A DNA stretch of 64,000 bases, taken from contig JBKCLO010000103.1 in assembly GCA_046300675.1 (NCBI GenBank), forward strand, positions 1,903 through 65,902, written 5' to 3'. A program made the position numbers and the translations under genes. Below are positions 1,007-63,804 of this stretch, piece by piece. This stretch comes from Ignavibacteria bacterium. Its GTDB lineage: Bacteria; Bacteroidota; Ignavibacteria; Kapaibacteriales; Kapaibacteriaceae. A model generated the notes under the pieces. That model was not told where the DNA came from. It was given only the letters and a program-made list of their open reading frames with translations, and ran no database searches. Position 1 is the stretch's first letter; every line of letters starts with the position of its first letter.

Positions 1007-2173
1007 TCACGTAGTGCTAACGCGCGGCCAAAGTGCGCATTGTGCGCCCCATGCCTCGATCATCATTGTAACCTGGTCTCGCCAATGGTCGGCACGTGAC
1101 GTTCCATCACGGCGAGTGGCTCGAAGCAAAACGTTCTTTTGGGTGTGTTCAAGAGAGATGAATTCTTCAAGGTGTGCATCGTAGCCTTTCCAACGCAGGA
1201 TGTCGCGGCGCATGGTGTCTGTGAGCAAATCACCAAGTCGTTCCTTCGTTATGCCGTCATCGAGCAGCGGACGCGCCCATGTTGGTACACGGTCCTTCGC
1301 GAGCTGCTTCTGTACTTCGTGATGACAGCAGGGGGCAACGAGCATCGTGTCTGCATGGAGTGCCAGACCTAGTTCCAACGCATCATCCGTCGCGGTATCG
1401 CATGCATGCAGGGCGATAAGCATATCACAATGGGGCAGTGCAAGCCCCTTGCCAACCTCACTGATCCCACCGACGTAGAACTCGGCGCCGGTAAATCCCA
1501 TGTCCGCAGCAACCTTACGGCAGTGCCCGATAACATTGGGATTAGAGTCGATTCCGATGAGTCGGACCTTACGTCCCATGCGCTGCATCACATAAACCAG
1601 AGACAAAGAGAGGTAGGCCTTGCCGCAGCCTGCATCGACAACGACGAACTCGCTGTTCGCTGCTCGGTGCTCGCTGTTCGCTGCTCGCTGCAGCAAATGA
1701 TTAACCTGACGAAACTTATCTGCCATCGGGGCTTTGATGCGTCCGTCGGCGGTTGCCAAATCCATGATGTGCAGGAACGCTGCATCCTGTTCAGGCGTCA
1801 GCAGTCGTTGTTTGGTCCGGTCTGCTGTTACACCATCCCAGTGCATTCGGCTCGCAGAGCTCTGTTGCACGGAGACGCGCACGCCATCGCTCTTGAATGA
1901 ACGTATAACATGGTGGTCGTTCTCGGGTGTCTGCACCAGAATCTGACGGAATGACTCATGCAGAAGGTGTTCCAGAGCAATGTCGAGATCCTCCACAGGC
2001 TCCTGCCAGGGGGCTGTAAAGGCCTGTCGGTCTGTAAACGACTCAATACGCAGGCTCCAGAGTCCAGATGTACGTTGTCCACTGACGACGGCCTTGGTCC
2101 ACGGGCAGTTCTTTAGCGGACGCGAGAACGTGGCCACAAACACGTCGGCTGTAGACAGCAATTCGGTGAGCAT
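1007..2173 (-). CDS. Class I SAM-dependent methyltransferase (Methyltransf_32-like)
   Basis: VVDAGCGKAYLS motif I, ALHACDTATD, APCCH and EHTQKN motifs; contains an in-frame repeat-derived insert. Confidence 0.85.
   Translation of the reverse strand: MLTELLSTADVFVATFSRPLKNCPWTKAVVSGQRTSGLWSLRIESFTDRQAFTAPWQEPVEDLDIALEHLLHESFRQILVQTPENDHHVIRSFKSDGVRVSVQQSSASRMHWDGVTADRTKQRLLTPEQDAAFLHIMDLATADGRIKAPMADKFRQVNHLLQRAANSEHRAANSEFVVVDAGCGKAYLSLSLVYVMQRMGRKVRLIGIDSNPNVIGHCRKVAADMGFTGAEFYVGGISEVGKGLALPHCDMLIALHACDTATDDALELGLALHADTMLVAPCCHHEVQKQLAKDRVPTWARPLLDDGITKERLGDLLTDTMRRDILRWKGYDAHLEEFISLEHTQKNVLLRATRRDGTSRADHWRDQVTMMIEAWGAQCALWPRVSTT
1650..1691 (-). repeat. 6 x 7-bp tandem repeat inside the methyltransferase CDS
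   Basis: + strand units tcgctgt tcgctgc tcggtgc tcgctgt tcgctgc tcgctgc; encodes QRAANSEHRAANSE. Confidence 0.9.
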
Positions 2174-4771: not shown

Positions 4772-5146
4772 ATGGCAAACTCATACGAAGCAGTTGGCAC
4801 GCTTCATCATCTGACAGAAACGCAGCAAGTGAAGGACACCTTCCGCAAGCGTGAATTTGTGCTCGAGATCCAGGACGGTAACTATCCTCAGCACATCAAG
4901 TTTCAGGTAACACAAGACCGCTGTTCTATCATGGACAGTTACAAGGTCGGACAGCAACTCAAGGTGCTCTTCAATCTGCGTGGACGCCCCTTCCAAAACA
5001 AGGATGGTCAAACGGTGTATTACACTAACCTCGAGGCCTGGAAAATCGAAGCTGCCGGTGCCACAGCGCCAGCAACAACCGATTATTCTCAGATCACACC
5101 TGCTGGTTCGTCAGCCAAAGACGACTACGACGACGTGCCGTTTTAA
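4772..5146 (+). CDS. DUF3127 family protein (SSB-like OB fold)
   Basis: FRKREFVL, YPQHIKFQ, FNLRGR, YYTNLEAWKIE and acidic C-terminal DDVPF tail. Confidence 0.85.
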   Translation: MANSYEAVGTLHHLTETQQVKDTFRKREFVLEIQDGNYPQHIKFQVTQDRCSIMDSYKVGQQLKVLFNLRGRPFQNKDGQTVYYTNLEAWKIEAAGATAPATTDYSQITPAGSSAKDDYDDVPF

Positions 5147-5276
5147 GCAGCGAGCAGCGAGCAGCGAACAGCGAACAGCGAACAGCGAACAGCGAACAGC
5201 GAATAGCGAGCAGCGAGCAGCGAACAGCGAGCAGCGAACAGCGAATAGCGAACAGCGAACAGCGAACAGCGAGCAG
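5147..5276 (+). repeat. 18 x 7-bp tandem repeat (gcagcga/acagcga/atagcga), intergenic
   Basis: 18 full units counted from 5147 to 5272 plus partial gcag; starts directly after the TAA of the DUF3127 gene. Confidence 0.97.
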
Positions 5277-43388: not shown

Positions 43389-43431
43389 TTGTATGCGGCA
43401 TGCACGTGAGACGTGACACGTAAATTGCCGC

Positions 43432-45456
43432 ATGAAAAAGATCGTGCTTCGTCCGGCAAGTGTAGCGCCTAATGGTGCATCATATCGCATTGACTATGCC
43501 TCGGTCCTAAATCCGCAGCAGTATCAAGCGGTGATGCACAACAATGGTCCTGCGTTGGTGTTGGCAGGTGCTGGCACAGGTAAGACCCGAACGCTTACCT
43601 ATCGGGTTGCAAGACTGGTTGAAGATGGAGTTGACCCTTCATCGATCTTGCTGCTCACGTTCACGCGCAAGGCAGCTTCGGAGATGCTTCGTAGGGCCTC
43701 GCACCTTCTCGATGGACGTTGTGAGCACGTCTCAGGAGGAACGTTTCATGCTTTCGCATTCAGAGTGCTTAAAACGTACGGGATGCCAGGGGGCGTGCAG
43801 CAAGCAGCAAGCAACGAGCAGCGAGCAGTGTATTCGATCATCGATCAGTCGGACGCTGAGGACATTATGAATCTTGTGCGTAGCAAGTTTGATCTTGCTG
43901 CCAGGCGCAAGAGGTTCCCGAACAAGGGCACATTGCACGACATGTACAGTAAGTCTGTGAATATGTCAAAGCCCCTTGACGAGCTCATTGCAGAACAGTA
44001 TCCGCAGTTTGTCGACGATACCGAGACAATCCGCCACATGGTGCATGCATATACTGACTACAAACACAAGAACTCGTTGTTTGACTACGACGACCTGCTA
44101 CTGTATCTGCTGGCAATGACCCGTCACGAGACAATTGGCACTGCGTTGCGATCGCAATTCCGACACATCATGGTAGATGAATACCAGGACACAAACAACC
44201 TCCAACACCAGATTGTCTTAGGATTAGCCGGTACAAGCGGTAATGTGATGGTTGTTGGCGATGATGCACAAAGCATCTACTCGTTTCGTGGCGCCAATGT
44301 TCGAAACATTCATACCGTGCCGTCTTCGTTTGATTCCTGCGCAATCATCCGCCTAGAGGAGAACTACCGCAGCACGCAGCCGATTCTTGATGTTTGCAAT
44401 GCAGTGCTGGAAGATGCTCCGTTTATGTTTGAGAAGAAGCTGCGAGCGCATCGACAAGGGGGCGATCAGCCAATGCTGATCACTGCCAGAAGCGAGCGTC
44501 AGCAATCGCAGTTTATTGCTCAGCATGTGCTCGAATTGCGCGAACAAGGGGTACCTCTTACCGAGATCGCTGTGCTTGTGCGCAGTGGCTTTCTTTCGTT
44601 TGATCTTGAGATCGAACTTCAGCGCGCCAATGTCCCGTTCCGAAAGTTCGGCGGACTCAAGTTTGCAGAAGCTGCGCACGTGAAAGACATACTGGCACGC
44701 CTGCGCATAACCGAGAATGTCCGCGATGTTGTCTCGTGGTTCCGTGTGCTACAACAGCTCGAGGGCGTCGGACAGAAAACAGCGCAGATCATCATTGATC
44801 ACCTTCTTGAGCATCCAGATCCGCTCACCGAACCAGAACGCACGTATGGCAGCACTGGTAAGGCGGCCCACGCGCTGAACAACCTTCTACATGAGCTAGG
44901 CAAGGCACGGCTTGTGCGACATCCTCTAGACAGACTCCAATACATTGCCGAGCACTATAAGCCTACGCTGGAGCGAGTTCACGATGATGCCCCCAAGAGA
45001 TGGAAGGACATCGAGACCATCGTTGGTATAGGTGGCAGGTACGGGTCATGTCAGGAGTTCCTCGATGATATTGCACTTGAGCCCCCTACAGATGGACTAG
45101 ACACGATAGACCCCGACGACAGAGAAACAGAATTCATGACTATTTCTACTATTCATTCGGCTAAGGGGCTGGAATGGAAGGTCGTATTCGTGCTGTCGGT
45201 AAACGAGGGCCGCATTCCATCGGCAAAGAGTGCCGAATCCGAAGAATCAATCGAAGAGGAACGCAGACTTCTCTATGTTGCATGCACTCGGGCGAAGGAT
45301 ACACTTATCATGACCTATCCTGATGTGATGGCAGAGTGGCAGCACTCGGACGTACTCTCACGTCCAAGCCGATTCTTGGACAATGTTGCTAATGAGCTTT
45401 GTCCTCGATACTTCCTAGCCGAAGAACAACCTGACTCGCAGGAGTTGCTCTCATGA
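43432..45456 (+). CDS. UvrD/PcrA-family ATP-dependent DNA helicase
   Basis: AGAGTGKT, LTFT, TFH, VDEYQD, GDDAQSIYSFRGA, NYRS, TIHSAKGLEW, EEERRLLYVA.TRA. Confidence 0.95.
   Translation: MKKIVLRPASVAPNGASYRIDYASVLNPQQYQAVMHNNGPALVLAGAGTGKTRTLTYRVARLVEDGVDPSSILLLTFTRKAASEMLRRASHLLDGRCEHVSGGTFHAFAFRVLKTYGMPGGVQQAASNEQRAVYSIIDQSDAEDIMNLVRSKFDLAARRKRFPNKGTLHDMYSKSVNMSKPLDELIAEQYPQFVDDTETIRHMVHAYTDYKHKNSLFDYDDLLLYLLAMTRHETIGTALRSQFRHIMVDEYQDTNNLQHQIVLGLAGTSGNVMVVGDDAQSIYSFRGANVRNIHTVPSSFDSCAIIRLEENYRSTQPILDVCNAVLEDAPFMFEKKLRAHRQGGDQPMLITARSERQQSQFIAQHVLELREQGVPLTEIAVLVRSGFLSFDLEIELQRANVPFRKFGGLKFAEAAHVKDILARLRITENVRDVVSWFRVLQQLEGVGQKTAQIIIDHLLEHPDPLTEPERTYGSTGKAAHALNNLLHELGKARLVRHPLDRLQYIAEHYKPTLERVHDDAPKRWKDIETIVGIGGRYGSCQEFLDDIALEPPTDGLDTIDPDDRETEFMTISTIHSAKGLEWKVVFVLSVNEGRIPSAKSAESEESIEEERRLLYVACTRAKDTLIMTYPDVMAEWQHSDVLSRPSRFLDNVANELCPRYFLAEEQPDSQELLS
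43797..43830 (+). repeat. About 4-5 degenerate 7-bp units inside the helicase CDS
   Basis: gcagcaa gcagcaa gcaacga gcagcga gcagtg; encodes QQAASNEQRAV. Confidence 0.7.
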
Positions 45457-59926: not shown

Positions 59927-60723
59927 GTACCGCAGCATCAGTAACCGACGCACTTGATGGTGTAAAGTACGGCGCAGCCGAGATCAAGCGTCTGATTCAA
60001 GCGAACACAGAGCGTGCGTTCAAGATCACGATGGCGCTGCTGCTTTTGCTTGCGTTGTACACGTTTGTTGGACCAATCATTTCCGAGTGGTTGTTTCCTT
60101 CACCAAAAGTTGTCAAGGTCAAGCTCTCTCGTCTTTAGCTCGAGGCATTGCCACCACCGCAGTCGCACACAGAAGAGGCTCCACCGCCTCCTCCGCCGTC
60201 AAATCTTCCGCCAGCACCAGCAGCGCGTGCAGGAACGCCTGTTGCTGTTCCGGATGCAGAGATCACGGCAGACATGCAGGACTTTGCGAATATCGACCAG
60301 ATCAACCGTTCGTCTTCGCAAGGAGGCAGTGGTGATGACAGCGGCGTCCTGAGCTTTGACCCAGGTGCGGGTGGTCCGCCACGTGAAGAAGAAGAAGAGA
60401 TCATGGATGCCTTTGAATTCGAAGACGGCTTCCTGCCGGTTACAGACGAAGGCGACCTTGTCAAGAAACTACGCGACCTTTACACGACAACACAATCGTT
60501 CCGTATGGGATTCGAAGGTACGGTGCTTGTGAGCTTTGTTGTTGGTAAGGATGGCCGAATCTCTGAAGTCAAGGTAGATCCAGAAGGTTCAAGCGGCTAT
60601 AAGGACCTCGACGAGGCAGCCATTAAGGCGATTCGCATGTCTGTGTACACACCTGCGAAAAACGCAAACGGACAGCCCACAGCTTGCCGTCTGCAGCGTC
60701 CAGTTACCTTCCGCCAACGTTAA
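59923..60723 (+). pseudogene. tonB: Energy transducer TonB interrupted by one in-frame TAG (60136-60138)
   Basis: ORFs 59923-60138 and 60148-60723 are in the same frame: YGA.E.KR + TM helix, then KLSRL*LEALPPP, Pro-rich linker, TonB_C (EGTV.VSFVV.KDG...LDEAA); could also be a sequence error or readthrough. Confidence 0.75.
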
Positions 60724-60733
60724 CACGAAATAC

Positions 60734-60767
60734 AAAGCCCCGTGTCACCACTGACACGGGGCTTTTT
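60734..60767 (+). terminator. Intrinsic terminator after tonB
   Basis: aaagccccgtgtca-ccac-tgacacggggcttt plus T run. Confidence 0.88.
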
Positions 60768-60801
60768 CTATTTTGTCCCGACCTTATCACTCGAGTTGCC
60801 C

Positions 60802-60996
60802 ATGTATGTCATCAATATCCTAGCCCGTGTCCTGGTTGCCTTGGTCGGACTGCTCATTGCCATCGGTGAAATCACCGTTGGCAACCTTGGCTCGCCGTTC
60901 CAAGAAACGTTCGGCATCGTCGTCTTCTTGTTCGGTGCCTTTCGCGTTGCACAGTTTATCTCAAGGAGCAGAGATGAGAGTTCTGATGATGCATGA
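60802..60996 (+). CDS. Small two-helix membrane protein (64 aa)
   Basis: MYVINILARVLVALVGLLIAIG...FGIVVFLFGAFR; overlaps the start of the next gene. Confidence 0.65.
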   Translation: MYVINILARVLVALVGLLIAIGEITVGNLGSPFQETFGIVVFLFGAFRVAQFISRSRDESSDDA

Positions 60997-61981
60997 GCGG
61001 GCAACTCGCTGTTCGCTACTCGCTGCTTGCTGTTCGCTGCTCGCTGTTCGCTGTTCGCTACTCGCTGCTTGCTGTTCGCTGCTCGCTGTTCTATTTGCCG
61101 CCTGCACAGAGCAGCCAGATCCGTCAAAGGCTGGCTATGAGTCTGCCATTCAGGGGGCTGTTACGGTGCTCATCGATCCTGAGTATCGCGAGCTTATGGA
61201 TACGATACAGACCCTGTATGCAAAGGAACACCCCAAGGCCACTATTACATTCAAGGAAGCGGTGGCAGGGGATGCGATGATGTCGATGTTGAACCGCACC
61301 GAGCGTATTGCAATCGTAGCCCGCAACTACACCCCTGCCGAGGAAGAGGTCCGCCTGGCGGCCGGTGCTGATTCATTGCCGCGTGCCTTGCTCTCAGTAG
61401 ACGCACTCGTTGTGCTTGTTCCGAAGTCATTCCCCTACGACACAATGAATGCGGAGCACATACGGGGCTGGCTCAAAGGGGATGCCTCGGTAACAAAGAA
61501 CTATCCCAAGCTTGCAAAGTCACCACAGTTTGTGGTGCCCGGTGGGGCAGATGCCTCTATCTACGGCAATGTGGTCAACGTGGTCTTAGGTGGAAAACAG
61601 CCGGCCAAGGGCACAGTTGCAGCTGTTGGGACTCGTGATAGTCTCAAGCAGGTCATCGCTTCACGTCCGGGCAGTTATATAGGTTTTGGGCTACTTTCTC
61701 AGTACGTGCGCGATTCGTCCGTAAAGATGCTTCGTCTAAGCTACATGGATTCGACAGGAGCACATGTATGGCCGAAACCAGTTCATTCATCGTACCTGAT
61801 GATGCGCAAATACCCGTTCCCTGTGCCGGTTTATGTCTATCTCAAGCGGGTACCGAGTCAGCGAGATCTTGCCAGCGGATACATGCAATTCGTAACCCGT
61901 AGCGGCAAGGTCCAAAAGCTGCTCTTCGACTGGGGAATAGAGCCTGCATATGCTAAGGTTACGCTCTATGACGAGGAGTAA
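60974..61981 (+). CDS. PstS-like (PBP2) substrate-binding lipoprotein
   Basis: ATG 60974 after aaggag (alternatives 60986/60989), lipobox-like FAAC, D....P/Y...P.A.I, DALVVLV, YPF...VYVY, F..S..Q pattern. Confidence 0.8.
   Translation: MRVLMMHERATRCSLLAACCSLLAVRCSLLAACCSLLAVLFAACTEQPDPSKAGYESAIQGAVTVLIDPEYRELMDTIQTLYAKEHPKATITFKEAVAGDAMMSMLNRTERIAIVARNYTPAEEEVRLAAGADSLPRALLSVDALVVLVPKSFPYDTMNAEHIRGWLKGDASVTKNYPKLAKSPQFVVPGGADASIYGNVVNVVLGGKQPAKGTVAAVGTRDSLKQVIASRPGSYIGFGLLSQYVRDSSVKMLRLSYMDSTGAHVWPKPVHSSYLMMRKYPFPVPVYVYLKRVPSQRDLASGYMQFVTRSGKVQKLLFDWGIEPAYAKVTLYDEE
61006..61089 (+). repeat. 12 x 7-bp tandem repeat (2 x exact 42 bp) encoding the signal-peptide core
   Basis: (tcgctgt tcgctac tcgctgc ttgctgt tcgctgc tcgctgt) x2; encodes RCSLLAACCSLLAV twice. 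Confidence 0.95.
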
Positions 61982-62079: not shown

Positions 62080-63804
62080 ATGAAAAACCTTATCTCAAGA
62101 ACATTGATCGCTGTCATCCTGGCAGCACTTGCGATGCCATTGTATGCAGTTGCCGATGAGTATGGCGACGCGCAGCGCGCCGTTGAGCAGAAAGACTACG
62201 TTCGTGCCCTTGAGCTTATCCGAACGGCAATTGCCAAGGATCCACAAGACATCGACCGTTTGCGTCTGGGCGCTAAGGTCTACTTGGAAATGAACATCCT
62301 TGATACAGCCCTAGCGTATGCAAAGCGTGTGCACAAGGATGACGATGACATCAAAGAACACGTTCTTCTCTATGCAAGTGCACTGATTGCTACCAATAAT
62401 GCTGCCGAGGCATGTGTTGCTATCAAGAAGTTCCGAAAGGGGGCTGATGATGTGGAAATGGCGCTTGCGCACGTAGACGCTTTGGTTGCAGCAGATAGCC
62501 TGGTGTCTGCAGAACTTGTTGCCACAACAGCCCGCTCGAAGTTCTCCAAGAGTGCGCTTGCATACTTAGCGCTTGGCAATCTGTACTTTAACTGGAAGCC
62601 CCGTCCAATCCTTGAAAATGCTGCTGATAACTACCGTGCAGCTATTGATCTTGAAAACAACCTGGTCGATGCACACTTCAATCTTGCGATATGCTATTGG
62701 AAGATGCGTAACCGTGAAAGTGACGATGCCCTGGCCACTGAGTATCTCACGAAGTGCCTTGACGAGTGGACCATCGTATCACAGCTCGACCCGAAGAATG
62801 CTCGCGCATGGTTCGAGCAGGGCAAGATTTTTTACTACGCAAAGAAGTACTCCAAGGCGGTTAGCGCCCTCAAGGAGTATCGTACCCTGCGTCCGGTTGG
62901 CTCCGGAGAGGCCATGGCCTCCTGGTTCCTTGGTGAGTCGCTCTACAAACTGGCCAAATGCGACGAAGCACAGCAGCACCTCGAAGATGCCGCGCGTCAG
63001 GTAGACTCTCTTAAGTCCAAGGTTGCACTTATGCTTGCCCGCTGCAACTTCGACGCAAAGAAATGGGCAGAATGTGCCAAGAAGTACGACGAGGCAGTGG
63101 TGTTCGAGACATCATGGGAGCCCACAGACTTCTGGAACCATGGTACGGCGCTGATCCTGGCCGGTGATACCACAAAGGCCATCAATGTGATGCTTGTAGC
63201 ATCCGAAAAGGCACCGAAGCAGTGTGCATCAATGTTCCGCCTGGGCTTCCTGCTGCAGGTGCGGAAACAGTACAAGACCTCGACCAAGGTGTTTCAAGGG
63301 CGCCTGGCCAACTGCTCAGATAGCAACGATACTCGCGTGAACATCCTGATCGGCAATAACTTCTTTGCCGACAGCCTGGTCGACAGTGCGATTTCCTATT
63401 ATCAAAAGGCTTTAACCATTAACTCGAAGAGCATGTGGGCTATGCAGTTAATGGGAGAGTCGTATCTGCTAAGTGGTAATGAGGTTCTCGGAGATTCGCT
63501 CTTGAACGTGGTGATTACCAACGCCCAAACCACGACGTCTAACGACGAAAAGCGCTACGGAATTGCCGCCATTAATGCGGCTAATAACTACGACATCAAG
63601 AAGCGGGACTATCAGAGTATCGTGAACCGTTGTAAGATCGGAACCCAGATCAACCCTCAGTCGGCGATCGTGTGGCTCTACCTTGGCATCGGCTATCAGG
63701 GTACGAAGGACCTTGATAATGCCAAAAATGCTTATCAAGAAGTGCTCAAGATCGACCCAAACAACCAGATGGCGAAGAAGAATCTACAAACCCTCGGGAA
63801 GTAG
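62080..63804 (+). CDS. Exported tetratricopeptide-repeat protein
   Basis: Signal peptide (AMPLYA), many TPR-like repeats (AYLALGNLY, AHFNLAICY, AWFEQGKIF, VWLYLGIGY...A...Y..VL.IDP.N). Confidence 0.88.
   Translation: MKNLISRTLIAVILAALAMPLYAVADEYGDAQRAVEQKDYVRALELIRTAIAKDPQDIDRLRLGAKVYLEMNILDTALAYAKRVHKDDDDIKEHVLLYASALIATNNAAEACVAIKKFRKGADDVEMALAHVDALVAADSLVSAELVATTARSKFSKSALAYLALGNLYFNWKPRPILENAADNYRAAIDLENNLVDAHFNLAICYWKMRNRESDDALATEYLTKCLDEWTIVSQLDPKNARAWFEQGKIFYYAKKYSKAVSALKEYRTLRPVGSGEAMASWFLGESLYKLAKCDEAQQHLEDAARQVDSLKSKVALMLARCNFDAKKWAECAKKYDEAVVFETSWEPTDFWNHGTALILAGDTTKAINVMLVASEKAPKQCASMFRLGFLLQVRKQYKTSTKVFQGRLANCSDSNDTRVNILIGNNFFADSLVDSAISYYQKALTINSKSMWAMQLMGESYLLSGNEVLGDSLLNVVITNAQTTTSNDEKRYGIAAINAANNYDIKKRDYQSIVNRCKIGTQINPQSAIVWLYLGIGYQGTKDLDNAKNAYQEVLKIDPNNQMAKKNLQTLGK

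Follow-up and report, generated by a model that had tools for sequence, protein, structure and literature searches.

A dispersed heptanucleotide repeat as the probable source of a lipoprotein export signal in an Ignavibacteria bacterium

Can a repeat that is dispersed through a genome, mostly between genes, come to serve as the export signal of a protein? The question is raised by the 5' end of one gene in the window, by which we mean the whole stretch of 64,000 nucleotides that was analyzed (positions 1903-65902 of contig C103 in the source genome G000, which comprises 2.53 Mb in 193 contigs and has a G+C content of 51.9%). In this gene an array of heptanucleotides separates the start codon from the cysteine at which the protein is predicted to be lipidated. 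An earlier note on this DNA had proposed that the repeat was recruited as an export signal, that changes of 21 or 42 bp would tune the signal or shift the site of lipidation, and that slips of 7 bp would switch the gene off.

The gene, its start codon and the anatomy of the array

The features of the locus are collected in Table 1. The gene is part of a cluster with the order TonB gene, small ORF, lipoprotein gene, TPR protein gene, and orthologues of its product, P0001, are found in 40 of 41 related genomes. Residues 59-308 of P0001 match the Pfam model PF12849 with 33.2 bits (the curated cut-off is 27), and the model of the PstS subfamily, TIGR02136, yields 40 bits, well below the NCBIfam curated cut-off of 206.6; judged by these scores P0001 would be a distant relative of the PstS phosphate-binding subfamily, and a putative substrate-binding protein. 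The small ORF that precedes the gene is kept as a hydrophobic protein of 61-64 amino acids in 6 loci, where it overlaps the downstream ATG by 14-23 nt. In the window the overlap is 23 nt: the TGA stop codon of the small ORF occupies 60994-60996, and the array begins 9 nt later. This ORF has no Pfam match; situated between tonB and the lipoprotein gene, it could be a member of the TonB cluster that annotation has missed.

The block that runs from AAGGAGC to the ATG is invariant across the 5 orthologous loci that were aligned, and the codons 3' of the ATG diverge freely. As both the Shine-Dalgarno-like AAGGAG and the ATG are conserved in these 5 loci, the comparison of sequences identifies ATG 60974 as a secure start. 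No in-frame ATG, GTG or TTG was found in or just past the array, and the next methionine is residue 74.

Translation of 60974-61981 reproduces exactly the N-terminal peptide given in the earlier note and places Cys44 at 61103-61105. The same note had described the array as an exact duplication of 42 bp; in agreement with this, Tandem Repeats Finder reports 2.0 copies of a 42-bp period at 61006-61091, with 100% matches and a score of 172, a degree of identity that cannot be chance. At period 7 the program finds 12.0 copies with 79% matches (61005-61088), and at period 21 it finds 88% matches over the array. The 12 units are imperfect versions of YTCGCTG (TCGCTGT and TCGCTGC four times each, TCGCTAC and TTGCTGT twice each), and these four variants are interleaved; the period-7 identity of the tract is 0.80, its longest perfect period-7 run is 19 bp, and its sole perfect repeat is the in-frame 42-mer. 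In any of the three frames of this strand the repeat encodes the same hydrophobic pattern of seven residues, C-S-L-L/F-A-A/V-R/C.

Table 1. Positions of the features discussed in the text (coordinates of the window unless a contig of G000 is named).
Feature	Position	Strand	Basis
TonB-family gene	60148..60723	+	Pfam TonB_C, 56.5 bits
Terminator-like hairpin, 3' of the TonB-family gene	60734-60765		Hairpin search
Small ORF, 64 aa, hydrophobic, with two apparent membrane segments	60802..60996	+	No Pfam family
Shine-Dalgarno-like AAGGAG, 5 nt upstream of the ATG	60963..60968	+	Read directly
Lipoprotein gene (P0001), 335 aa, PBP_like_2 / PstS-family substrate-binding (putative)	60974..61981	+	Pfam PF12849
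Signal peptide, 43 residues (predicted)	60974..61102	+	Translation
First 42-bp copy, 6 heptamers; absent from 6-unit alleles	61006..61047	+	Tandem Repeats Finder, X1 contig, G013 locus L002
Second 42-bp copy, 6 heptamers, same sequence as the first copy; codes for the h-region adjoining the lipobox	61048..61089	+	Tandem Repeats Finder, 100% matches
Lipobox L-F-A-A-C; Cys44 (61103-61105) is the predicted lipidated +1 residue	61091..61105	+	Rule match, ortholog alignment
TPR-repeat protein with its own signal peptide, same gene cluster, downstream	62080..63804	+	ORF and Pfam
Metallophos lipoprotein with array-coded signal	G000 C161:5400-6353	-	Pfam
Phosphodiest-family enzyme (type I phosphodiesterase) with array-coded signal	G000 C107:17941-19582	-	Pfam

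The claim that the signal peptide consists almost entirely of the repeat stands: residues 11-40 are encoded by the array, and of the residues ahead of Cys44 only 10 at the N-terminal and 3 at the C-terminal side lie outside it. The peptide is laid out as an n-region (residues 1-12), a hydrophobic block coded by the repeat (13-25), Arg26, a second block coded by the repeat (27-39), and L-F-A-A. Ahead of the hydrophobic run stand the positive charges of R2, R9 and R12 (and of R26), with one K/R among the first 7 residues. The h-region proper is formed by the 17 residues without D, E, R or K that follow R26 directly before the lipobox, with a mean Kyte-Doolittle hydropathy of 2.41.

Export was examined with a PROSITE-type lipoprotein rule, combined with hydropathy, on a set of 25 alleles and orthologues. 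The rule matches the aligned cysteine in 25/25 of these sequences, and it matches no other cysteine. Likewise, among the 65 relatives found in databases, all those with a complete N-terminus have a hydrophobic run that ends in a cysteine aligned with Cys44 and is followed by conserved mature sequence. The comparison of orthologous N-termini that had been suggested as a check thus finds the lipobox cysteine in every full-length orthologue, and we infer that P0001 is exported and lipidated at Cys44. Two further LAAC strings, which end at Cys19 and Cys33 (FAAC ends at Cys44), had been counted as extra lipobox matches created by the duplication. Both strings are present, but the duplication adds only one of them, as the LAAC at Cys19 is already found in the 6-unit allele; as lipoboxes, moreover, neither holds, because an arginine lies inside the stretch that the rule requires to be uncharged.

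A role of the array as a hairpin was also considered. A search of 60600-61400 gave no inverted partner for the array, and when the RNA of positions 60950-61130 was folded, 199 of 200 shuffled versions were at least as stable (z = +2.61), so that the natural segment is the less structured one; on these two results the idea was rejected.

The dispersed heptamer family and its translated members

A period-7 scan of G000 returned 97 heptamer arrays belonging to several families, among which at least four can be distinguished (CAGCGAR, AATTACN/AATGACN, GAGAGTG and GGCACTC). The CAGCGAR/YTCGCTG family, to which the array in the signal peptide belongs, accounts for 45 arrays with a total of 3340 bp and has the consensus AACAGCG/AGCAGCG in canonical rotation; multiple matches to it were also obtained in the relatives G023, G018, G006, G019, G009 and G005. 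The quality of ORFs was assessed with a codon-score heuristic of our own, not with a gene caller, and the counts of intergenic, stop-codon and N-terminal arrays all depend on it. With this measure the 45 arrays are mostly found outside well-scoring ORFs, and for 18 of them a well-scoring ORF terminates no more than 12 nt away. When arrays were placed at random on the same contigs, this number was 0.78 on average and never exceeded 5 in 500 trials. This result suggests that the 3' ends of genes are a preferred site of insertion or nucleation for CAGCGAR arrays.

Heptamer arrays occur at four places in the window (1649-1691, 5148-5276, 43797-43828 and 61005-61091), and the one at 5146-5276 (G000:C103:7048-7178) is among the 18 that abut a stop codon. 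Many contigs of G000 begin or end in an array, and arrays of different families often stand side by side; heptamer repeats are probably the cause of the fragmentation of this genome into 193 contigs.

Among the 97 arrays, only 3 are located in the N-terminal portion of a well-scoring ORF and 3' of an in-frame ATG, and all three are read in the hydrophobic orientation. The genome search for further signal peptides of this kind, which had been proposed as a check, therefore gave two additional exported enzymes, a Metallophos lipoprotein and a Phosphodiest enzyme (Table 1). In G000 the signal of the former exceeds its G013 counterpart by 14 residues (42 bp); heptamers code for this signal in G006 as well, but not in two relatives at about 45% identity. 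The repeat at the signal-to-mature junction of the phosphodiesterase varies among genomes: G006 and G018 have the CAGCGAR family, G013 has a different heptamer family, and G023 has a 21-bp repeat. In the last of these genomes (locus L057) the 21-bp repeat occurs seven times after the signal peptide and encodes G-S-P-L-P-A-A. In G018 (locus L056, about 1440-1640) a CAGCGAR array 5' of the ATG and a YTCGCTG array in the signal peptide make up an inverted pair around the start codon, which could possibly form a hairpin over the ribosome-binding region. All three proteins with array-coded signals belong to phosphate-related families (PstS-like binding protein, metallophosphoesterase and type I phosphodiesterase), a link that, with n = 3, may be a coincidence.

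In the opposite orientation the YTCGCTG/CAGCGAR family is translated as a hydrophilic heptad, in a membrane-anchored protein and in a UvrD-type helicase. The former, which has no Pfam family, is split in G000 between C119:15975-16499 and C92:1-1029 and has an orthologue in G018 (L049, 450-1199); its array of more than 280 bp, read in the hydrophilic sense as S-S-E-Q-R-A-A heptads, lies between a hydrophobic segment and a coiled-coil-like part, and breaks the assembly. The helicase ORF of the window (43417-45456, + strand) carries a decayed array at 43797-43828, and at the same position the helicase of G023 (L045, 935-1027) has an intact array of about 13 units that places hydrophilic heptads inside the N-terminal helicase domain. 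A further array of the window, with 6 units at 1650-1691, is read as hydrophilic heptads of the Q-R-A-A-N-S-E type in the middle of a Methyltransf_32 protein (ORF 1007-2182, - strand), just before the glycine-rich motif for SAM binding.

Taken with the conservation of the start codon and of the lipobox cysteine, the membership of the array in a dispersed and mostly intergenic family upholds the central proposal of the earlier note, that the repeat in its hydrophobic orientation supplies the whole h-region of a lipoprotein signal.

Natural length alleles and competing explanations

The length of the array varies in nature. In the 90%-identity protein cluster that contains P0001 (n = 13), 9 proteins have 321 amino acids (6 units), 2 have 328 (9 units, degenerate in one case) and 2 have 335 (12 units). 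Across the 292 residues of the mature part P0068, P0070 and P0072 (6 units) and P0069 (12 units) show 0 differences from P0001, such that five different signal peptides are found on an identical mature protein; P0076 (9 units) shows 1 difference. In the nearest genome, G013 (98% identity), locus L002 has a single 42-bp copy, corresponding to 6 units. A 23-base pattern of the flank gave 0 records in metagenome contigs and 3 in genome contigs, including loci of the G019 and G013 types, and a search of metagenome contigs for related loci gave 7 that are more distant. Every length allele has the same arginine, the same 17 uncharged residues and the same lipobox adjoining the cysteine; the extra units therefore lengthen the side of the n-region and leave the lipobox where it is. 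Of the effects that had been predicted for changes of 21 or 42 bp, in-frame length variation thus has natural counterparts, but the shift of the lipidation site does not, since the conserved cysteine is the only one that matches the rule. We infer that all the length alleles are functional.

This last point can be disputed. The 12-unit allele might be tolerated and yet impaired, with the extra block and Arg26 disturbing targeting or topology, in which case the duplication would represent mildly deleterious drift and not tuning. Consistent with this, a form with an arginine between two hydrophobic blocks could export less well, 12 units are the minority form (2/13), and the rule that the cysteine should lie within residues 15-35 includes Cys30 of the 6-unit allele and excludes Cys37 of the 9-unit and Cys44 of the 12-unit alleles. 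On the other hand, the 6-unit allele has exactly the same segment next to the cysteine (arginine, 17 uncharged residues and lipobox), and the 12-unit allele is found on 6 contigs. On balance we consider impairment doubtful.

A different explanation is that the array is a contingency (phase-variable) locus, retained because frequent 7-bp slippage would turn expression of the lipoprotein on and off. Units of a length not divisible by three, a position in the 5' coding region and an array length that is clearly unstable in nature would all suit a switch. However, the numbers of units are multiples of three in 13/13 members of the cluster, in G000, in G013 and in a public contig from run X1, a regularity that has to be read with the knowledge that protein clustering misses OFF alleles. 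In addition the tract is impure, with the period-7 identity and the short perfect run given above in place of a long perfect tract, and what perfect repetition it has keeps the reading frame. Among the arrays of at least 54 bp (n = 23) the three in signal peptides rank second to fourth lowest in purity (exact one-sided p = 7/1771, post hoc). Finally, the organism lives free in fresh water, and the TonB cluster that holds the gene is conserved. A switch is, in our opinion, improbable.

Known precedents also count in favour of a switch. In Neisseria opa (PMC3960869), CTCTT pentamers are coding repeats in the region of the leader peptide; as in the present case, a non-triplet tandem repeat of variable copy number in the 5' coding region is translated within the signal peptide. 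The opa repeats are perfect and gene-specific and produce frameshift switching at about 1e-3 per generation (PMC3960869), whereas the array studied here has imperfect units, belongs to a genome-wide and mostly intergenic family, shows only in-frame changes of three units, and is found in a free-living freshwater host. The AAGACTC heptanucleotide repeat in the 5' coding region of E. coli K1 neuO is a proven phase switch, with minorities of 20 and 22 units within a culture (PMC13001214). There too heptamers are translated only at counts divisible by 3, every 3 units add 7 N-terminal residues, and strains differ widely in copy number (PMC13001214). By contrast, that tract extends a cytoplasmic enzyme at its N-terminus with hydrophilic residues, and it is out of frame (OFF) in 42 of 64 complete genomes (PMC13001214); here the repeat encodes a hydrophobic export signal, and there are 0 OFF alleles, in a comparison that is biased inasmuch as a protein-based sample misses them.

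We regard it as very improbable that the 12-unit form is an artefact of assembly and that the real gene has 6 units. All the length alleles come from short-read assemblies, which may collapse or expand tandem repeats, and 6 units is the count in most alleles (9/13). The stretch occurs in 20 runs from 12 studies. Public contigs of runs X1 and X10 were compared with the window over 60800-61300: the X1 contig (1853 nt, depth 25) skips exactly 61006-61047, joining 61005 to 61048, with 0 other differences, and the contigs of X10 break at the array; the raw-read runs X22 and X23 yielded 0 reads on the stretch. Nevertheless, 6 contigs, which come from three sources, encode precisely this 335-aa protein, and for this reason an artefact is unlikely; in addition, the second 12-unit sequence, P0069, comes from another record and differs from P0001 at residue 12, the 9-unit intermediate P0076 exists, and the array, at 84 bp, is shorter than a 150-base read.

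Least credible of all is that the true start lies 3' of the array or that the protein is not exported, the repeat being merely 5' untranslated sequence: many arrays of the family do sit just 5' of start codons, but the Shine-Dalgarno sequence and the ATG are conserved, no in-frame start codon is available ahead of residue 74, and a start at that residue would delete the conserved cysteine together with the segment C-T/S-E-Q-P-D..K-A-G-Y-E-S-A that is common to the orthologues.

The reading that we prefer, with a probability of about 0.8 for the explanation as a whole, is that an array of a stop-adjacent family is translated as the h-region of a lipoprotein signal, varies in length in steps of 3 units, and ends in a lipidation site at Cys44. 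The array is a member of the genome-wide YTCGCTG/CAGCGAR family, whose usual place is just past stop codons, and here it lies 9 nt beyond the TGA of the conserved small ORF, which runs into the lipoprotein gene. Being at the usual stop-codon address of its family and at the same time inside the 5' coding region of the next gene, it is translated; this is the simplest account of how its translation came about. Its hydrophobic pattern would then form the entire h-region of a signal of the Sec/signal-peptidase-II type, ending at L-F-A-A-C, and unequal pairing of repeat copies would change its length by multiples of three units (21 or 42 bp), thereby generating the forms with 6, 9 and 12 units.

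Relatives give some indication of the history of the array at this locus. In the lineage of P0006 (75% identity) six units, now decayed, occupy the corresponding position and reading frame, with 2 full matches to the unit pattern and the same L-A-A-C-C-S codons. The G019 orthologue (L003, about 1477-1535) has three copies of a 15-bp repeat in the n-region instead of heptamers, and the lineages of G023 and G006 have plain signals at this gene. In a maximum-likelihood tree of 22 mature parts (chosen per signal type, with six outgroups, and rooted at the midpoint) the two lineages that bear heptamers are not sisters, with support values of 86-87. The tree and the signal types are compatible with either of two possible histories, a single early capture followed by replacement or capture on two occasions. 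The 12-unit form itself is a recent exact duplication of the 6-unit form.

Repeat-derived export signals in a wider context

Several families of 7-bp tandem arrays that are dispersed in one genome, mostly between genes, are known in cyanobacteria as short tandemly repeated repetitive (STRR) sequences. The family described here resembles them in being made of dispersed heptamer arrays, and differs from them in phylum and in the sequence of the units. We know of no report of STRR arrays that encode signal peptides, and our search of a library of papers found no description of repeat-derived signal peptides of this type or of Kapabacteria repeats.

It is known that a signal peptide can be built from nearly any hydrophobic sequence. 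Few published examples show clearly, and in nature, a family of non-coding repeats that has become a whole h-region, and the present locus shows a simple route of capture, in which arrays at stop codons become translated when the next gene overlaps. The strongest asset of the finding is its clean natural allelic series: with the mature protein identical and 6, 9 or 12 units ahead of it, the series constitutes a natural experiment on the effects of signal length and of an internal arginine in lipoprotein export. For annotation, it should be considered that heptamer repeats break assemblies and can mislead the calling of start codons.

At the level of the genus we would tentatively go one step further, and propose as a possibility that dispersed heptamer arrays may be a standing reservoir from which export signals and N-terminal linkers arise anew and are quickly remodelled. 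Seeded at the ends of genes, such arrays would be translated where genes overlap or abut, the hydrophobic strand giving rise to h-regions and the opposite strand to hydrophilic linkers, and in-frame changes of 21 or 42 bp would tune the efficiency with which certain exported proteins are delivered to the envelope.
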